This document shows positions 50,387 through 64,000 of a stretch of 64,000 nt of DNA, in pieces. Below the pieces are notes generated by a model that worked only from the letters and a program-made list of their open reading frames with translations, did no database searches and was not told where the DNA came from. Each line of letters opens with the position of its first letter. Position 1 is the first letter of the stretch. The DNA lies in assembly GCA_019058445.1 (NCBI GenBank), contig JAHPZA010000010.1, positions 320,001 through 384,000 on the forward strand, written 5' to 3'. The DNA comes from Promethearchaeota archaeon. GTDB taxonomy: Archaea; Asgardarchaeota; Lokiarchaeia; Sigyniarchaeales; SOKP01. The translations under genes were made by a program, and so were the position numbers.

Positions 50387-52720
50387 ATACTAAGACAAGT
50401 TTATATCTATAAAGGTGATGATCTTCTTTATTATAGGCATTTTGGTAAAGCATTAAAACAAGATATTTTTTCTAAGCTTGTGAAAGAGTTGATGGAAGAT
50501 GTTTTTGCGAGAAAGAGTATCACATCAATAGAATCACATGACTATTATAAATACAAAATATCGTATACAGCCTCAAAAGAACAAGAATTACTGTTTTTAT
50601 TTGTAACAGGGTTGACAGATTCAATTGATAGTATTAAGAAAGAGTTATTGAGATGTAAAAGAGAATTCCTTAATTTATTTTCAGAGATCCTACAACATAA
50701 ATTTGATGCTAAAACTTTCGAAGTATTTGATCCAACTATTGATACAATACATCGCAATTTAAGACCTAAAATTTCCTTAGTAGGATTTTCTGGAGTTGGA
50801 AAAACTACCATAACGAAATTGATAAAAGCAGAAGAAATTCCCATGAAACATGTTCCCACAATTACAGGAGATATCGCAACCATAAAGATTGGAAAACTAT
50901 ATTTTCATTTATGGGATTTTGCAGGACAAGAACAATTTAGTTATCTATGGAATAACTTTGTTAAAGGGAGTGATGCTGTACTTTTAATTACTGATTCCAC
51001 GCTAGAAAATATAGAGAAAAGCAAATTTTTTCTCGAATTGATAAGAGAAGAAGCACCCCAAGCACATACTGCGGTGATAGGGAATAAACAGGATTTACCT
51101 GAAGCATTAAAACCAATACAAATAGAGAAAATTGTTGGTCTAAAGACCTATTCAATGATTGCCAAAAATAGTCAAAATAGAAATAAAATGATTCAAATTA
51201 TTGCTGATGTTCTTGAGATGTCTGCTGAGGTTTCCCCCCTTCTGAAACCGTTATTAGAGAGAGATAGATTGACTGAAGAAGCTATGAATGCATTGGAAAA
51301 CGCAGAATTTAGCGAAGCATCTTTATTATTTGAAAAAATTTCAGACTTGTGTATTGAATTGGGAGACGACTCACTTGGGAGGGAATTTTATGAAAAATCT
51401 GAAAAAATAAGGCAAATGTTACAAAAAGTTGGAGCTCCAGAACAACCCCCCGTAGTAGCTGATCTTAAAGAACCGATTTCAAAACCTCCAAAAGTAGAAG
51501 CTGTACCAAAAATTGAAGAACCTATTACAAAACCACCAGAGGAAAAACAAGCAGTAGAGGTTGAAGAAGCTCCGATGGAATTGCCTATTGAAACACCTAC
51601 ACTTAAGCCACCTAAATCAGCCCCTAGTCCGGAGCCAGTAAAAGAAGAATCTTCATCTATATTTGAAGAGCTCGGAGAGCTTGAAAGCAAAGAAGAGACG
51701 ATTGAAAAGCCAGCAATACCAATCCAACCTGCAACGGAACTTGAAGCAATATCGACTGTTGAACAGATAGATGTTGTTGAAAAATTGATTGTGGAATCCA
51801 CAGAACCTGCTGAAGAAAAGCCCGAGAAAAAGAAAAAGAAAAAGAAGAAGAAGAAAAAGAAGAAGAAAAAAAAACAAAAAGAAGAACTTGAAGTTCAAGA
51901 AGTAAAATCAATCATTCAACAACCATCATTTCTAAAAAAGGTCGAAATTCCCAAACCAGCTCAAAAAGCTGAACCAATTGAAACCCCCAAACCAATAAAA
52001 ACAGTCCAGGATCAGTCTGAATCTGTACCACCATCGGAAGGAGATATGGAGTGGATACACCCAAAAGTAAGAGAAATAAAAAAAGAACAAAGATTTGAAA
52101 AAATAGCAGAAACTTTAAAAGCGGAAGAAGAAAAAGCAACAATTAAACTACCACGAGACAAAACTAGTCTCCCAATCAATATAGAGGAGTTCATGGTGAA
52201 ACAAAGACCTAAAACAATAACGACCGTTCCTAAAGATGCTAAAGCAAAGTTAAAAACTTCTGCATATGGACATGTTACAAATGTACCTCAAGCTACTGCA
52301 GAAAAACCTCCAGCTCCACCAAAATTAGAAAAAACAATACCGAAACCAGTTGCTCCAACTAAACTAATGGAACCGGAGATTACCAAGGTACTTGAAAAGC
52401 CAAAAATTCCTCCAGCTCCGGACATTTCTGAACTGTCTGAAGAATTGGAAGCTCCTGAAGTTCATGAGCCCGTAGTTGAAACTCAAGAGCCCAAAAAAGC
52501 TCCAATAAGTGCGCAGCGAAAAACGTTAGAAGATTCTCTGATGGATTTTAAAATTAAAAAAGCTAAGCTTCAAAAAATGGCATTAGATTTTGATATGCAG
52601 GAACTATCAGGAGAAATAACATCTGAAGAACTTAAAGAAAAGAAGATGAAATTAAGCGAGTTAGAGAAAAAAATCGAGGAACAAATTAACCAAGCCGAAA
52701 AAATGTTAGAAGATTTGTAA
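50387..52720 (+). CDS. Longin-like domain + Arf-like small GTPase + helical hairpin + Pro-rich/poly-Lys linker + C-terminal coiled coil; probable ATA start
   Basis: G1 GFSGVGKTT, G2 PTI, G3 WDFAGQ, G4 NKQD; frame open upstream of GTG 50480 to ATA 50387 (LRQVYIYKGDDLLYYRHFG), with AGGTGG ending 6 nt before. Confidence 0.8.
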   Translation: MLRQVYIYKGDDLLYYRHFGKALKQDIFSKLVKELMEDVFARKSITSIESHDYYKYKISYTASKEQELLFLFVTGLTDSIDSIKKELLRCKREFLNLFSEILQHKFDAKTFEVFDPTIDTIHRNLRPKISLVGFSGVGKTTITKLIKAEEIPMKHVPTITGDIATIKIGKLYFHLWDFAGQEQFSYLWNNFVKGSDAVLLITDSTLENIEKSKFFLELIREEAPQAHTAVIGNKQDLPEALKPIQIEKIVGLKTYSMIAKNSQNRNKMIQIIADVLEMSAEVSPLLKPLLERDRLTEEAMNALENAEFSEASLLFEKISDLCIELGDDSLGREFYEKSEKIRQMLQKVGAPEQPPVVADLKEPISKPPKVEAVPKIEEPITKPPEEKQAVEVEEAPMELPIETPTLKPPKSAPSPEPVKEESSSIFEELGELESKEETIEKPAIPIQPATELEAISTVEQIDVVEKLIVESTEPAEEKPEKKKKKKKKKKKKKKKKQKEELEVQEVKSIIQQPSFLKKVEIPKPAQKAEPIETPKPIKTVQDQSESVPPSEGDMEWIHPKVREIKKEQRFEKIAETLKAEEEKATIKLPRDKTSLPINIEEFMVKQRPKTITTVPKDAKAKLKTSAYGHVTNVPQATAEKPPAPPKLEKTIPKPVAPTKLMEPEITKVLEKPKIPPAPDISELSEELEAPEVHEPVVETQEPKKAPISAQRKTLEDSLMDFKIKKAKLQKMALDFDMQELSGEITSEELKEKKMKLSELEKKIEEQINQAEKMLEDL
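51827..51874 (+). repeat. 16 consecutive Lys codons (9 AAG, 7 AAA)
   Basis: Counted directly in frame. Confidence 0.9.
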
Positions 52721-55275: not shown

Positions 55276-55800
55276 TTATGTTCTAGAGGCTATTATTCGA
55301 CGAGTAAGTTCTGTAAATGCTTCATCTACGTTTTCACCCGTTTTTGCTGAAGTCTCAATGTAAATACTACCCTCATTTTCAGCATAGGCCCGTGCCTCTG
55401 ATCGATCAATTACCTCCCCAACATCCTCAAGTAAATCAGCTTTGTTTCCAATTAATACAAAAGGAATATTTTCCCCGGCAAATTGTCTTATTTCAGTCAA
55501 CCATTTTCTAGTTTCTGTATAGGTTTGTTCTCTTGTAAGGTCAAAAACTAATAATGCTCCAGCAGCTCCTTTGTAAAAAGTACTTCTTATAAACTCAAAA
55601 CGTTGTTGTCCTCCTATGTCCCATATTGAGAGTGTAGCCATTTGTCCAGGAGTAAATTCCACATCCTTAGTGAGGATATCTACACCTACTGTAAGCTTGT
55701 AATTTGCTTGAAATCGATTTTTGATGAATCTCTGAACCAATGACGTCTTACCGACAGCAGCCGCTCCCGTTAAAAGAACTTTCAGTTTAAAACTACTCAT
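55276..55800 (-). CDS. Rab-like small GTPase, no C-terminal prenylation motif
   Basis: GAAAVGKTS, TVGVD, IWDIGGQQRF, FYKGA, NKAD, ETSAK. Confidence 0.93.
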   Translation of the reverse strand: MSSFKLKVLLTGAAAVGKTSLVQRFIKNRFQANYKLTVGVDILTKDVEFTPGQMATLSIWDIGGQQRFEFIRSTFYKGAAGALLVFDLTREQTYTETRKWLTEIRQFAGENIPFVLIGNKADLLEDVGEVIDRSEARAYAENEGSIYIETSAKTGENVDEAFTELTRRIIASRT

Positions 55801-57997: not shown

Positions 57998-58840
57998 CTA
58001 TAATTTTGCTAACTTCTTTACTTGTTCAATCATTTCAGTTTTTATATCCTCACGTTTTACATTTTCAAAGGAAACGTTATCTAAATTCTCCAATGTTGTC
58101 TCAATTATTCTTTTATAATCCTTTCCAGAATTATATTCTTCAATAAATCTCTCTTTAGCGTCCCTTAATGTTTTTTCAACCAAATCGTAGTTTTCATAAA
58201 TCACGCCTCTATATTTGTAATTAACTAAAACTGTAATGGCTGAATCATAAGCTCCGCCACGTGCTTTAGAATCTATAATTTGGAAGAGATACACAATTCC
58301 TAAAGAGTTTAGATCAATATAGGGCTGAAATGAAATCATTTCGCTACTTGCTCCAGAACTTTCGACAGAGAGAAGAAGTAAACTCTTCATAGAAATTTTA
58401 AATGCATCATTGTCATCAAAATCTTCTGGTAAATAGTAAATAGGAACTGGACCCTCATCCAATGCCATTGAAAATATTACTGAATTGATTTTTACTTTTT
58501 TAGTCCTTTTCTTTTTATCAAATTTATACATAATATCTGCTTTATAAGCTGCCGAGATCTCATTAAACTTATTTTTAAGAACGGTTCTTGGAACTTCTCC
58601 AACTAAGAATATAAAAAAATCAAAGGTTAGCCTAAAAATGATTAGATTTCTTACAATAATAACACTCCCGATTTCCATATCATTGATAACTGTCTTTAAA
58701 ATTCTTAAAATTTTAATTCTTCCAAAATTTTTATCGTCCAAACTTGTTTCAATTATCTTACCATTTGAGAGAATAAGTGCCCATTGAGAACAAATTGAAT
58801 TCAATATTTTCGAAATCTTTATAATCATGATATTATGCAA
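57998..58840 (-). CDS. Two-domain protein: roadblock/profilin-like N-terminus plus longin/uDENN-like C-terminus
   Basis: WALILSNGKIIETS; VIFSMALDEGPVP...YLFQIIDSKARGGAYDSAITVLV resembles the uDENN F-D-x3-GP...ARG pattern. Confidence 0.5.
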   Translation of the reverse strand: MHNIMIIKISKILNSICSQWALILSNGKIIETSLDDKNFGRIKILRILKTVINDMEIGSVIIVRNLIIFRLTFDFFIFLVGEVPRTVLKNKFNEISAAYKADIMYKFDKKKRTKKVKINSVIFSMALDEGPVPIYYLPEDFDDNDAFKISMKSLLLLSVESSGASSEMISFQPYIDLNSLGIVYLFQIIDSKARGGAYDSAITVLVNYKYRGVIYENYDLVEKTLRDAKERFIEEYNSGKDYKRIIETTLENLDNVSFENVKREDIKTEMIEQVKKLAKL

Positions 58841-59140: not shown

Positions 59141-62100
59141 ATGGAAAAACAAGAATTGGCTCAAAAGGCCTTAGAATTATTAAATCAAACAGATAAACTT
59201 GAAGAAGAGCGAAATTGGGCTAAAGCTATTGAAAAGTATAAACAAGCTGCTGAATATCTAAAGCAATCTGGATTTTTACCCCATCGAATAGAAGATATTT
59301 ATAAAAGAATTACCGAAATCAACGATTTTTTAGAACAAGAAAAAAGATATCAAATGCAAACTCAACAAGTCCACCTTGAACAAATACAAGAACAAGCATT
59401 TGCAATATTAGACGGAGCTAAAAAATTCGAAACAGATGGCCATTTTGAGGATGCAATTCAACAGTATATGTCTGCTATTAAATTATTGGTGGAATCAGGA
59501 TGGACTGAGAGTCAACTTGAAAATCTTAAAGAAAAAATTATAGGTTTAACACAAAAGATCGAACAACAAAAAGATACGACGTATCTTCAACAACAAATCC
59601 AGATACCAAAGGACTTTAAGCCAAAAGAGATTAGTACAGAAGTAGGAAATTCTGCAATAGATTTAAAATCTGAACAAGTAAAAGCATTTGAAACAAAAAG
59701 AAAGAGAGAAGAACAAATTCAAAATGAATCTTTCGAATTGATAGATAAAGCAAAAATATTCGAGAGCGAAAAGAGATATGATAATGCGATTAATTGTTAT
59801 CAGGAAGCTATAAGATTATTAAAATCGATTGGCTGGACTGATCAGACAAGAAATTTAGAAATTTTAATTGGAAAGTTAAGAAAAGATAAGGATATATATG
59901 AAAGAGTTGAGGCTCAGAGAAAAAATAAAATACATTTTGATAATATCGAAGTTCAACTCACTCCAGACCAGTCTGAAACTCAATCTGAGGTGGAATTAAG
60001 AAAACAAAAAATTATAGAATTTGAAAATAAGAAGAAAAAAGAGGAAGAAATTCAAACTAAAGCATTTAATTTAATTGATATTGGAAAAAGACTTGAAAGA
60101 GAAAAAAAATATGATGATGCTATTGAAAATTTCCAAAATGCCATAGACCTTCTTAAATCTATCTCATGGGACTCTTATATTCAACCGGTTGCTAATTTTA
60201 TAAATGAAATAAATGAAAAGAGAAAACGTGAATTAAAGACGGAGCAACTTAAGAAAAAAAGGCAAGAAGATTTAACCACACTTCAAGAAACAATATATAA
60301 AAAGCAAAAAGAAAAAATAGTGCAAACGTCTCAAGATTTTGAAATACGTAAAAAGGATTTTGAACAAGAAAAACTAAAGCAAGCTGAAAGAGAGGAACAA
60401 TTCTTCGTCCAGTTAGATAAAGCTGATAAAATCTTAAAAGAAGAAAAAAATTATGATAAGGCAGTTAATGAATATCAAAAAGCCTTAGAAATGCTAAAAA
60501 GTTTAGGAGCTGGATGGGAATCTTATACTCCTACAATTCAAGCTACAATATCTAATATAAATAAGAGAAAAGAATATCAATCAGAGAAAGAAATAGAGAT
60601 TCTGAAGAAAAAGGACGAGCAAATTAAAAAGGAATTAGAATTTCAGCAACAGGTTGATAAACTATTAAAGAAGGAGCGTAAAAACCTACAACAAAAAGAG
60701 ATCGAATTAAAAGGACGTGAAGAAGAACTAAGATACAGAGAAGAAGCTAAGAAAAAAGCTTTTCAATATCTGGAAACTGCCGAAACTTATATTAAACAAG
60801 GTGATTTAGACAAGGCAATCTATGCATATCAAAACGCGGGTAATACTTTTGCAGAGATTCAATGGACTGATGAGCTTCCACTAATTGAAAAATCAATCTC
60901 TGAGCTTGAAAATAGAAAAAGGGAAATGTTTTTATCAAAACAAGAAGAAATGCATAAATTAATCGAAAGAGAGAAACAGGAACGAGATTTTCAATCACAG
61001 TTAGCGAACCAATTACACCTCGAGCGTGAAAAGTTGAAAGAAAAAGACATAGCATTAAGAGAGCATGAAAGAGAGGTAGAATATCGAGGAACCAGAAAAA
61101 ATGAAGCATTTAAATTATTAGATGAGGCACAAAATTACCTTAAGGAGGGAGATTTTGATAATGCAAGTGAATTATATCATCAAATAGCAAATATATTTGC
61201 TGAAATTCAATGGGATAGTGAAATAGATCTGATTCAAAATGCAATAATCGAGATTGAAAATAAAAAAAGAGAGACTCAAATTCAAAAGCAAAAAGATTTT
61301 CAAAAAGTATTAGAAAAAGAGCGTGAAGAACGCATTTTTCAAGAAGATATGTCAAGGGCAATTCAAAATCAAATGGAAAATCTAAAAGAAAAAGAAATTA
61401 AGATAAGAGAACAAGAAGATGAATTAAAGCATCGCGAAATTAAAAAAGAAGAAGCATTCGAATTGTTAGATAAAGCTATTTCTTTACTTTCTCTCAGAAA
61501 ATTCGATGAAGCTCTTAATGTTTATTATAATGTTGCTAACATTTTCGCTCAAATCCAATGGGATGACGAAATTCCAATTATCCAAAACGCTATTGAGGAA
61601 ATAAAAGAAAAGAAGAAAGAGACAGACCTTTGGAAACAAATGACAATGAAAAAAGGTATAGAAAAAGAAACTACTTATCAGGCTTTTATTGAACAAATGA
61701 AAACTCAAAGAGAAATAGAAAAATCAAAATTATTGGAAAAAAGCGAAATGATTAAAAAACAAAAAGAATTAAGTGCTCAAAATTTAGCTAAACAAGAAAA
61801 TGCTTTTAAAATTATTGATGAAGCAGATGAATTTCTGAAACAAGAAAATTTTGATGAAGCTATATCGAAATTTAAAGCTGCAGAATCAATTTTAACCGAA
61901 ATAGGCTGGGAACCAAGCTATTTAAGAACATTACAAGATAATCTTAGAACGATACAAATTAGGAAATCCGAAAAAGAAAAAGAAATAAGAAGAGAAAAAG
62001 AAATTAGAGAAAAAAGGCAATTAGAAGAATTGCAATTTCAAACAAGAATTACTGAAGGCATTCAAAAACAAAAGGAAAGAATGGAAGCAAAAAAAATAGA

Positions 62101-64000
62101 ACTTCAAAAACAAGAAGTGCTTAAAGCTAAAATGGAACAGCAGAAATCGAAGGCATTTACGTTAATAGACGAAGCAGAAAAATTCTTGAGTGAATGTCAA
62201 TATGACCAGTCATTAGAAAAATATCGCCAAGTAGATTTAATTTTTAGTGAAATTCAATTTCCTGCCCAAGTTATTAAAGAGGCAATTTTAAAAGTTGAGG
62301 AAAAAAAGAAAGTGGAATATTTGAATAAACAAAAAGAATTAGAAAGTCAACTTAAAAAGAACCAAGAAGAATTCTTATTTAAACAGCAGATTTCTGAAAA
62401 AATGGAGATTGAAAGACAAAAAATGAAATCGAAACAGATTGAAGTCAAAAAGAAAGAAGAACTTAAAGATTACATGGAAAATCGAAAAAAGGATGCATTT
62501 AAATTACTAGAGGATGCCGAAATGTTTATGAATCAATCTCAGTACGATAAAGCCTTAGAATTTTATCAGAGTGCTGAATTAATTTTAAATGAAATTCAGT
62601 ATCCCTCTGATGTTATCAGAGATATGATATATAAAGTGCGAGAAAAGAAAAAGAATTATGAAATAGATAAACAAAAAGAAATTGAATATAAGATTCAAAG
62701 AGAAAGACAAGACTATGAGTTTCAGAAAAAACTTACTGAAGATTTTAGGAAAGAAAAAGAAAGATTAAGCGTTAAAAAATTGGAATTAGAAGAAAAAGAA
62801 ATATTACAAGCAAAATTAGAAGAAAAAAGAAAGCAAGCTTTCACAATTTTGGAGGAGGCTCAAAACTTTACAAAACAATTAGATTATGATAATGCCGTTG
62901 AATATTATCGAAAGGCAGAATTAATTTTGAACGAGCTCCACTTTTCAACGGAATCAATTAAGGGGATGATTGCTCAGGTGATGAATCTAAAAAATGAAAA
63001 GGATAACCAAAAAGAACTAGAGCTTAAAAGAGAACTGGAGCGAGTAGAAGAGGAAAAGCAGCTAAGAGCATTAATAGAAGAGAGAAAAAGACAGGAGGAA
63101 GAGAAAAAATTAGCTCAACAAATTGCGCTCCAAGAAAGAGAAAAATTAATCCAAGAACAGATAAGCCAAAGAGAGGCAGCTTATACTATTTTAGAAGAGG
63201 CGAGCAGATATCTTAAAAGTCGTATACCAGACTATGATAAAGCAATCTCTTTATATCTTCAAGCGAAGAAAATCTTAGCAGAAAATGTCGGATGGGAACC
63301 GGAAATAAGAAATTTAGAAGGACTTATTAAAGATTTACAACAAGAAAAAGCTAATTTTCTAAAAAGACAGCAAATTGAAGCCCAAGCACAATTGAAACGT
63401 CAACAGGAATATGATCTATTTAAAGAGGAAATGAGAAGAAAAAGAGTGGATCATGAGAAACAAAAGGAAGAGCAGAAATCTAAATTAAAACAATTTGAAG
63501 AACGAAAAGAATTGGAATCAACTCTGAGAGACGAAGGGCTAAGATTAATAGGAGAGGGAAAACGAAATGCGGAGTTAAAAACATTTGCTAAAGCATATCA
63601 AATGTTTGATAGGGCTATATCCCATTTTAGAGAAATTGGATGGAATGAACAAATCAAATATATTGAAACTGAGATTAAAAATGCTAAAATTTTAGAAGAA
63701 AATTTCAAACATGAAGAATTAGAGCGAGAAAGAATACAACAAGAATTAGAAAAACAACGAGAGTTAGAAAGGGAAAAATGGAAACAAAAAGATTCCCAAA
63801 TGCGAACAACAATCGGAGAAGTTGGCAGTCTTACTGATGAAGTTGCAAGTCTTTTTAGAGCTCGCGAGGAGCAATTAAAATTAACAGAAGAGCAGAGAAA
63901 AATACAAATTAAAAACGAAGCAAAAGAATTTAGTCGAAATATGGGTAAGATGCTGCGCATAAAGCAAGAATTACTGGCAGAATTGAAGAAGACTGAAGAA
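59141..64000 (+). CDS. Giant helical repeat protein (TPR/MIT-like hairpins alternating with charged coiled coil), partial, at least 1,620 aa
   Basis: Not in ORF track. ATG 59141 (MEKQELAQKALELLNQ...); same frame checked at 14 repeat anchors and at the window end. Confidence 0.88.
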   Translation, partial: MEKQELAQKALELLNQTDKLEEERNWAKAIEKYKQAAEYLKQSGFLPHRIEDIYKRITEINDFLEQEKRYQMQTQQVHLEQIQEQAFAILDGAKKFETDGHFEDAIQQYMSAIKLLVESGWTESQLENLKEKIIGLTQKIEQQKDTTYLQQQIQIPKDFKPKEISTEVGNSAIDLKSEQVKAFETKRKREEQIQNESFELIDKAKIFESEKRYDNAINCYQEAIRLLKSIGWTDQTRNLEILIGKLRKDKDIYERVEAQRKNKIHFDNIEVQLTPDQSETQSEVELRKQKIIEFENKKKKEEEIQTKAFNLIDIGKRLEREKKYDDAIENFQNAIDLLKSISWDSYIQPVANFINEINEKRKRELKTEQLKKKRQEDLTTLQETIYKKQKEKIVQTSQDFEIRKKDFEQEKLKQAEREEQFFVQLDKADKILKEEKNYDKAVNEYQKALEMLKSLGAGWESYTPTIQATISNINKRKEYQSEKEIEILKKKDEQIKKELEFQQQVDKLLKKERKNLQQKEIELKGREEELRYREEAKKKAFQYLETAETYIKQGDLDKAIYAYQNAGNTFAEIQWTDELPLIEKSISELENRKREMFLSKQEEMHKLIEREKQERDFQSQLANQLHLEREKLKEKDIALREHEREVEYRGTRKNEAFKLLDEAQNYLKEGDFDNASELYHQIANIFAEIQWDSEIDLIQNAIIEIENKKRETQIQKQKDFQKVLEKEREERIFQEDMSRAIQNQMENLKEKEIKIREQEDELKHREIKKEEAFELLDKAISLLSLRKFDEALNVYYNVANIFAQIQWDDEIPIIQNAIEEIKEKKKETDLWKQMTMKKGIEKETTYQAFIEQMKTQREIEKSKLLEKSEMIKKQKELSAQNLAKQENAFKIIDEADEFLKQENFDEAISKFKAAESILTEIGWEPSYLRTLQDNLRTIQIRKSEKEKEIRREKEIREKRQLEELQFQTRITEGIQKQKERMEAKKIELQKQEVLKAKMEQQKSKAFTLIDEAEKFLSECQYDQSLEKYRQVDLIFSEIQFPAQVIKEAILKVEEKKKVEYLNKQKELESQLKKNQEEFLFKQQISEKMEIERQKMKSKQIEVKKKEELKDYMENRKKDAFKLLEDAEMFMNQSQYDKALEFYQSAELILNEIQYPSDVIRDMIYKVREKKKNYEIDKQKEIEYKIQRERQDYEFQKKLTEDFRKEKERLSVKKLELEEKEILQAKLEEKRKQAFTILEEAQNFTKQLDYDNAVEYYRKAELILNELHFSTESIKGMIAQVMNLKNEKDNQKELELKRELERVEEEKQLRALIEERKRQEEEKKLAQQIALQEREKLIQEQISQREAAYTILEEASRYLKSRIPDYDKAISLYLQAKKILAENVGWEPEIRNLEGLIKDLQQEKANFLKRQQIEAQAQLKRQQEYDLFKEEMRRKRVDHEKQKEEQKSKLKQFEERKELESTLRDEGLRLIGEGKRNAELKTFAKAYQMFDRAISHFREIGWNEQIKYIETEIKNAKILEENFKHEELERERIQQELEKQRELEREKWKQKDSQMRTTIGEVGSLTDEVASLFRAREEQLKLTEEQRKIQIKNEAKEFSRNMGKMLRIKQELLAELKKTEE

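Follow-up and report, generated by a model that had tools for sequence, protein, structure and literature searches.

The 64,000-nucleotide (nt) stretch analyzed here (hereafter, the window) corresponds to positions 320,001 to 384,000 of contig JAHPZA010000010.1 in the genome assembly of a Promethearchaeota archaeon (GCA_019058445.1). At its 3′ end lies a giant gene whose product carries 14 copies of a helical unit. The open reading frame (ORF) starts with an ATG at position 59141 of the + strand and contains no stop codon through base 64000. In the adjoining contig DNA, a TAA was observed 99 nt past the window end, giving a protein of 1653 amino acids (aa) (P0002; L002:142-5103). The segment 59141..64000 encodes residues 1–1620, and the last 33 codons and the TAA lie 1–99 nt outside the window. 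More than 200 full-length homologues were found. The original prediction, made from the sequence of the window, had described a giant repeat protein that the ORF track had missed. Because the frame was still open at the window end, the gene was missing from the closed ORFs and surfaced only in the open-ended ORF listing; no internal stop codon splits the frame. Neither a transmembrane segment nor an enzyme domain was detected in the 1653-aa protein, which appears to be soluble. The sequencing runs carrying this stretch are sediment and soil metagenome DNA only, and no RNA runs are listed among them, from which nothing follows about expression.

The motif described in the original prediction was found in frame 0 at all 14 positions given there, starting at aa 10, 86, 197, 308, 421, 540, 656, 772, 888, 1005, 1119, 1233, 1347 and 1466. 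The predicted spacing, 228 nt followed by 333–357 nt with runs of 348 and 342 nt, corresponds to intervals of 76, 111, 111, 113, 119, 116, 116, 116, 117, 114, 114, 114 and 119 aa. A hidden Markov model (HMM) built from the units recovered exactly 14 copies, with E-values of 1e-20 to 1e-25 each, a result that is circular in that the model was built from the same units it finds. Independent support for the repeats came from Pfam searches of the whole protein (MIT, E 9e-32; TPR_2, E 3e-16) and from the recurrence of the unit positions in more than 100 homologues. Tandem Repeats Finder detected no long-period array in the DNA, because the DNA copies have diverged too far; whole units within the protein are 14–43% identical to one another.

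All 14 units are encoded on the + strand and were detected with the unit HMM. Units 1 (59159..59365, aa 7–75) and 2 (59387..59593, aa 83–151) form a tandem pair with a 76-aa spacing and no long spacer. Unit 1 is the most similar to the MIT domain of Vps4 (MIT, 29.4 bits), and unit 2 aligns to positions 2–63 of the 66 positions of Pfam MIT, which include all three helices. Pfam MIT also detected unit 3 (59720..59923, aa 194–261) and unit 4 (60053..60259, aa 305–373), which are followed by unit 5 (60392..60610, aa 418–490). Unit 6 (60749..60958, aa 537–606) is the first of the 116-aa-spaced type ending in IFAEIQW and, together with units 7 (61097..61309, aa 653–723) and 8 (61445..61657, aa 769–839), was also modeled with AlphaFold2. 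Unit 9 (61793..61996, aa 885–952) precedes unit 10 (62144..62350, aa 1002–1070), the first of the 114-aa-spaced type with the ending EIQ(F/Y)P. The series is completed by units 11 (62486..62692, aa 1116–1184), 12 (62828..63034, aa 1230–1298), 13 (63170..63391, aa 1344–1417) and 14 (63527..63730, aa 1463–1530). A charged, helical C-terminal tail (aa 1531–1653) is encoded from 63731 to 64000 on the same strand and continues outside the window. Counted from the start of the last unit, its length is constant across homologues (191–193 aa), and at its conserved end an amphipathic helix precedes a lysine run (in this protein, ...DEIARMLRDLKKKEK).

The original prediction had labeled the unit MIT/TPR/SNAP-like, a fair description in view of the Pfam results and of the nearest folds. 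Whole-protein scores were 109.4 bits for MIT (PF04212; cut-off, 30), a figure that is the sum over the units, and, for TPR (PF07719/PF00515), 58.5 bits for TPR_2 (cut-off, 27) and 44 bits for TPR_1 (cut-off, 27.8). When the units were scanned singly, MIT matched 6 of 14 at E ≤ 0.01 (best, 4.5e-7), TPR_1/TPR_2 matched four, and SNAP (PF14938) matched one (E 0.0093). The motif A..L..A......YD.AI..Y..A agrees with the consensus of the TPR A-turn-B hairpin. When the unit profile was compared with the Protein Data Bank (PDB), consensus TPR proteins matched over a 22-residue core (profile columns 13–34), and the MIT domains of calpain-7, a Sulfolobus Vps4-like protein, VPS4A and NRBF2 matched more weakly but over longer stretches; γ-SNAP aligned over 29 profile columns only. 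In a phmmer search of residues 1–380 against PDB sequences, a designed TPR protein was the sole match. A profile comparison (hhalign) with Vps4 MIT domains from the same order gave a probability of 89.9% and an E-value of 1.7e-6 over 34 columns; of the six genomes that supplied these domains, three belong to the same family and two of these three to the same genus. Membership in SNAP is not indicated, the hairpins of the units being non-contiguous, and no spectrin family was present among the whole-protein Pfam matches at E ≤ 1.

The original prediction had described the unit as a hairpin. AlphaFold2 instead predicted a three-helix bundle for unit 7 alone, with helices at residues 2–17, 20–36 and 40–75 and a predicted local distance difference test score (pLDDT) of 90.3. 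In a Foldseek search with this single-unit model, the top ranks were mostly MIT domains, NRBF2 being first with a template modeling (TM) score of 0.75, and the E-values were not significant, the domain being too small. A search with the 348-residue model of three units had been discarded, as it returned meaningless global alignments with root-mean-square deviations (rmsd) of 30–80 Å; the single-unit model was needed. In VIA-align superpositions of the unit 7 model, the MIT domains of NRBF2 (Z 10.1; rmsd, 1.1 Å over 68 residues), katanin p60 (Z 9.7) and Vps4 (Z 9.3; rmsd, 1.7 Å over 68 residues) scored near a Z of 10, a value that is common among small helical bundles. On the predicted model, MIT cannot be separated by fold comparison from a terminal TPR followed by a capping helix. 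We therefore refer to the unit as an MIT/TPR-like three-helix bundle, for which membership in the MIT family is supported by the sequence matches.

The likeness to MIT domains, such as those of Vps4, katanin p60, NRBF2/Atg38 and MITD1, extends to the asymmetric bundle of about 70 aa, the TPR-like first hairpin and the long third helix, and in NRBF2 the MIT domain is likewise joined to a long helix. In known MIT proteins, by contrast, the MIT domain occurs singly or in tandems of two to three, as a rule joined to an enzyme or adaptor domain; the giant protein would have 14 bundles (9–25 in its relatives) on one continuous helical backbone, and it has no other domain. Units 1 and 2, 76 aa apart with no long spacer between them, resemble the tandem MIT domains of ESCRT cofactors (Vta1/LIP5, calpain-7 and ULK3), and the calpain-7 tandem (8uc6) was a weak match (Foldseek with the whole model, E 0.085; profile, E 0.0048), but the other 12 units are each set apart by spacers of about 55 residues. 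Proteins in which TPRs end in a C-terminal capping helix (CHIP, FKBP51/52, Cpr7 and the consensus CTPR proteins) share the motif consensus and superpose equally well (Z 9.0–9.3). TPRs, however, follow one another directly as 34-aa repeats, and their array forms a solenoid groove, whereas the hairpins here are isolated, mostly 114–119 aa apart, and no solenoid was predicted.

The arrangement of the bundles was modeled on residues 537–884 (units 6–8) with an alignment of 116 homologues (mean pLDDT, 84.8). The predicted helices comprise residues 2–17, 20–36, 43–133, 136–152, 156–248, 252–268 and 275–347, so that each of the two helices of about 91 residues (43–133 and 156–248) would span the third helix of one unit, the spacer and the first helix of the next. 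The model thus shows isolated bundles linked by long helices, in agreement with the extended rod with regularly spaced modules that had been proposed at the outset. The compact TPR solenoid that would have spoken against such a rod was not obtained: the hairpins are 76–119 aa apart rather than in a contiguous tandem array, and the predicted bundles are separate. The comparison with spectrin made in the original prediction held in part. As in spectrin, three-helix bundles are predicted to be chained by a continuous last-to-first helix, and spectrin also forms long rods from repeats of 106–116 aa; neither the Pfam results nor the fold agreed with it. The three helices of a spectrin repeat are each about 30 residues long and leave no spacer exposed, whereas the bundle helices here are of 16–17 residues and a single exposed helix would make up about half of each unit, and a plakin spectrin repeat superposed on the unit model with a Z of only 7.9. 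When the three-unit model was compared by shape with the ESM Atlas, the best TM score was 0.54, for an unnamed cluster of 320 aa; by features, the best score (0.83) was under the level at which matches carry meaning. A bacterial (Thermodesulfobacteriota) cluster carrying TPR_2 and UQ_con (E2) was also observed (TM 0.37 to the three-unit model), a curiosity next to the E1 and E2 genes described below but a match too weak to build on.

The spacers were said to be long helices rich in E, K, Q and R and to form coiled coils. A long, charged helix is indeed predicted. Across the family, E makes up 20% of the spacer residues, K 17.5%, R 9% and Q 11%; hydrophobic residues account for about 25%, Pro for 0.2% and Gly for 0.4%. 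A coiled coil of canonical type appears unlikely: the hydrophobic content is low, and spacers of the 116-aa type lack a peak at 3.5 residues in their hydrophobic periodicity; those of the 114-aa type have peaks at 5.7 and 3.5. Opposite-charge pairs at i,i+4 occur at 0.15, compared with about 0.12 expected from the composition. Judged from the sequence, the spacer would thus be neither a textbook coiled coil nor a clear ER/K single α-helix. The hydrophobic residues conserved in it point to a partner missing from the model or to self-association.

A word-indexed search returned 226 proteins, of which the best 120 were all from Asgard metagenome-assembled genomes and were unnamed or annotated as "hypothetical" or "TPR repeat protein". 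Homologue lengths were quantized at approximately 1640–1663 aa (14 units), 2120 aa (18 units) and 2335 aa (20 units), and rarer homologues had 9, 10, 12, 16, 17, 19, 21 or 25 units, the last with 2927 aa. The exact string of intervals 116, 116, 116, 117, 114, 114, 114, 119 is shared by 42 of the 14-unit homologues, and 51 of those with 18 units have the same string with the block 116, 116, 117, 114 inserted. Units 7–10 and 11–14 of an 18-unit homologue were 43–47% identical, thereby indicating duplication of a four-unit block (463 aa). As read from these sequences, unit number appears to change by whole units and by four-unit blocks.

The spacing itself is almost invariant. Of the 118 homologues with at least 14 units, 115 have a segment of units 6–8 that is exactly 348 aa long. 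The alignment of this segment from 116 of the 118 (pairwise identity: median, 50%; minimum, 30%) is gapped at just 2 of the 348 query positions, each time in a single sequence. Mean column identity was about 0.61 in the linkers, as compared with 0.68 in the bundles, and the spacer residues F81, Q82, L89, E92 and R93 (348-aa alignment numbering) were nearly invariant. The only intervals that vary across the family are the second and third, near the N-terminus. Each unit is individually conserved between species, though units differ within the protein. In a rigid helix, an insertion or deletion of one residue would rotate all downstream parts by about 100 degrees. Residue-exact spacing is what would be expected if bundle-to-bundle distance and angle are both important.

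Among 151 genomes sampled across the phylum, the gene was present in 24 of 25 other members of the GTDB family to which the window belongs and was absent at E ≤ 1e-20 from all 125 genomes of 26 other families. When 1.84 billion cluster representatives were searched exhaustively with a profile, only 273 proteins were found at E ≤ 0.001, the farther relatives among them being other periodic Asgard proteins. The order of this family is the one containing Promethearchaeum syntrophicum, and the cultured strain MK-D1 of that species, from a sister family, encodes a distant relative with some 116-aa spacings (DSAG12_01611, 2547 aa; G162:C1:1136722-1144362, − strand), and no other member of the wider group was found in an organism in culture. 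Two further long ORFs were noted in the genome of the window. One encodes a second giant periodic protein of 2267 aa (G000:C6:850077-856880, − strand; L021:7078-13881) with about 17 units at a period of 121–126 aa, a variant motif, GNFE..PPY..VIEIY......L.E.GW.EQA, and a charged spacer; its last five or so units are like the unit of the 1653-aa protein, it has no Pfam MIT match, and a Ras GTPase and a proteasome α subunit are encoded nearby. The other, of 1613 aa (G000:C3, reverse complement of 531878-536716), gave many weak unit-HMM matches (whole-protein E 8e-5). No publication on the family, and no earlier description of 9–25 MIT-like bundles on one helix at residue-exact spacing, was found in the literature covered, which lacked most subscription journals.

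The small-GTPase neighbors on which the original prediction had remarked are real. Upstream of the giant gene, the opposite strand carries a weakly folliculin/longin-like gene that is divergent from it (57998..58840), a RACo gene and a gene for a Ras-family small GTPase of 174 aa (55276..55800); an aspartokinase gene, a PHP gene and an Arf/Roc-like GTPase gene (50480-52720, + strand) are located farther upstream. Downstream, after 196 AT-rich bases and outside the window, a ThiF-type E1 of 528 aa is encoded on the + strand (L002:5299-6885), followed by a HAD hydrolase and, 2.5 kb away, a UQ_con E2 of 171 aa on the − strand (L002:7568-8083). The order Arf-like GTPase, aspartokinase, Ras, RACo, giant gene, (S8 peptidase), E1, HAD and E2 recurs wholly or partly in four homologous loci at 35–41% identity. 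The E1 gene is 3′ of the giant gene in all four, directly or past one S8 peptidase gene (present in three), with the E2 gene beyond it in three. The Ras-family neighbor was kept in three of the four, the fourth contig ending earlier, and the folliculin/longin-like gene was missing from its position in all three with a readable upstream side (L010, L012 and L013), so that it is no conserved neighbor. Conservation of this synteny is confined to the one family with the giant gene. The sister family lacks the giant gene but has the E1, which lies there in unrelated neighborhoods, and the neighborhood of DSAG12_01611 in P. syntrophicum is different. The conserved order is compatible with a link to a ubiquitin-like system or to GTPases, and equally with inherited gene order.

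In the whole assembly, the giant gene was the sole match to Pfam MIT. The only Snf7/ESCRT-III gene of the assembly (P0122, L009:9548-10204) is on another contig, among metabolic genes and outside any ESCRT cluster; a 64%-identical homologue carries the name Vps20/32/60-like. The C-terminal tail of P0122 is strongly conserved and contains G.MP.VP (an MPxVP stretch), YIS, an acidic stretch and a terminal helix, KLQEEIEKL(K/R)KEL. To judge from its sequence, this tail resembles a proline-rich element of the type known as MIT-interacting motif 2 (MIM2) joined to a helix with the hydrophobic spacing of MIM1. Asgard Vps4 MIT domains have been reported to recognize MIM1- and MIM2-like motifs (PMC7240154), and in human MIT proteins one to a few MIT domains read ESCRT-III tails (PMC9477494). 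Candidate ligands for the bundles are thus present in the lineage. Vps4 itself was not found in the assembly by a Vps4_C search or from the N-termini of ORFs with AAA motifs, the single sub-threshold match (19.1 bits) being a 745-aa frame with two AAA motifs. Since a Vps4 of about 400–420 aa was present in 15 of 15 family members checked, including both genomes of the same genus, and the assembly is 92.6% complete, its lack here is likely to be a gap.

MIT domains bind short peptide tails that are helical or rich in proline, and MIM binding is the activity by which they are defined. Considering the bundles, their spacing and their conservation together, we postulate that the giant protein serves as a rigid periodic scaffold or ruler on which MIT-like bundles with a putative peptide-binding function are displayed, a reading to which we give about an even chance. 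The protein would be one long, segmented α-helical rod. In each unit, helices of 16 and 17 residues would form a TPR/MIT-type hairpin, on which a third helix would pack to close the bundle; the third helix would then run unbroken for about 55 more residues to become the first helix of the next bundle. The rod is read as rigid because the bundle spacings are residue-exact and conservation in the spacers almost equals that in the bundles. From helix geometry (1.5 Å per residue and a net advance of 74 residues per 116-aa unit), the rise would be about 11 nm per unit of 114–116 aa, the whole protein would be about 150 nm long, and relatives with 9–25 units would measure about 100–275 nm. The partner of such a rod would be periodic (for example, a polymer, a lattice or a membrane-bound array), and the bundles would be offered to it with set spacings and orientations, so that the rod would act as a multivalent adaptor or ruler. 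The tails of ESCRT-III subunits would be the leading candidate ligand. The conserved C-terminal amphipathic helix with its lysine run could attach one end of the rod to an acidic surface, or could itself be a MIM-like tail.

Several observations weigh against this scaffold. The best lone unit scored 29.4 bits, so that none reaches the Pfam MIT cut-off of 30, and the hhalign match to Vps4 MIT was limited to helices 1 and 2. The fold scores of the MIT domains were tied within 1 Z unit with those of a terminal TPR plus capping helix (CHIP and FKBP51) and of designed helical bundles. The predicted TM score of the model of units 6–8 was 0.36, so that the placement of the bundles, and hence the straightness of the rod, is predicted without confidence. 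A spacer helix with about 25% hydrophobic residues would be improbable alone in water, and a partner or self-association is likely. In addition, the giant gene is not close to ESCRT genes, and its family is limited to one Asgard family, whereas ESCRT-III and Vps4 are found order-wide.

The alternatives overlap with the scaffold reading and with one another. In one of them, a specific multivalent ESCRT-III binder, the units would be 14 true MIT domains that each grip a C-terminal MIM tail of polymerized ESCRT-III, so that the protein might coat, cross-link, measure or stabilize the filaments, or compete with or recruit Vps4. The MIT matches of the units in Pfam, hhalign and fold comparison, the presence of Vps4 in relatives of the same family and genus, the P0122 tail with its MPxVP stretch and MIM1-like terminal helix, and the reported binding properties of Asgard and human MIT domains all point in this direction. 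Yet the units resemble TPR about as much as MIT, and the lack of ESCRT linkage and the narrow distribution noted above count against it. Furthermore, units that are 14–43% identical and yet each conserved across species are a better fit to 14 different roles than to one site repeated 14 times, and we consider dedicated ESCRT-III binding unlikely. We regard as similarly doubtful a self-assembling skeletal element, in which chains would pair or form a lattice through their spacer helices in the manner of spectrin or intermediate filaments, the bundles serving as structural knuckles, to produce a membrane skeleton or a protrusion scaffold. It would account for spacers that are conserved nearly like the bundles and contain five near-invariant residues (F81 to R93), for their hydrophobic content with a 7-residue stripe in the second half, and for a continuity of helix 3 with helix 1 like that of spectrin, and a further giant periodic protein, of similar build, is encoded in this genome. 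The 116-aa units, however, show no canonical heptad signal, and the string of spacings is non-palindromic, which argues against a simple antiparallel in-register dimer.

The gene neighborhood invites two further readings. A golgin-like tether or small-GTPase effector would sit with its C-terminus on a membrane and bind GTPases or vesicles along the rod or at the N-terminal tandem pair. The conserved C-terminal amphipathic helix and lysine run are like a membrane-targeting sequence, the lengths of 100–275 nm estimated above would fall within the range of golgins, and Ras-family and Arf-like GTPases are neighbors both here and in the homologous loci. But this genome contains 78 Ras-family matches, approximately one per 59 kb, and a GTPase is thus expected within a few kb by chance about once in eight cases; proximity is therefore weak evidence. 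Unrelated housekeeping genes (aspartokinase, RACo and HAD) belong to the same conserved order, which may simply be inherited, the distant relative in P. syntrophicum has a different neighborhood, and golgins are dimeric coiled coils, for which the heptad signal is absent here. Such a tether seems improbable to us. Even less probable, and resting on analogy with eukaryotic MIT-containing deubiquitinases and TPR co-factors of E3 enzymes, is a scaffold that would organize the E1, E2 or substrates of a ubiquitin-like conjugation system. The E1 gene 196 nt downstream on the same strand and the E2 gene 2.5 kb away, with their recurrence in four and three of the four homologous loci, respectively, would suit it, but the AT-rich intergenic region, with a T-rich stretch right past the stop codon, suggests that the E1 gene is transcribed separately, and the unrelated contexts of E1 in the sister family indicate that the pairing is lineage-specific and may be inherited order.

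Within the scaffold reading, the protein could be a molecular ruler or template in the strict sense, in which 9–25 individually specialized bundles would dock every 11 nm or so on a periodic polymer, which could be an ESCRT-III filament or some other lattice of the cytoskeleton or membrane, and the number of units would set a cellular dimension of 100–275 nm. We put this forward as a long shot. By analogy, rulers with super-repeats such as nebulin, the titin A-band and CCDC39/CCDC40 share strict spacing, individualized modules and block duplication with the giant protein, but it has no homology to them and no known polymer that it templates. If the ruler were real, it would be a prokaryotic counterpart of rulers of the nebulin or CCDC39/40 type, built from the domain with which eukaryotes read ESCRT-III.

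Eukaryotic cells recruit enzymes to ESCRT-III polymers through MIT domains, and no closer relatives of eukaryotes than Asgard archaea are known. Should the bundles bind ESCRT-III or some other polymer, the giant protein would be a natural multivalent scaffold or ruler and would offer a handle on the poorly understood cell architecture of Asgard archaea. Whatever the ligand, the family is striking for protein design and evolution, as spacer length is kept to the residue at 30–50% identity while the protein grows by whole units that are individually conserved. Its confinement, among the genomes searched, to one family-level lineage indicates an innovation of that lineage rather than part of the eukaryotic inheritance.

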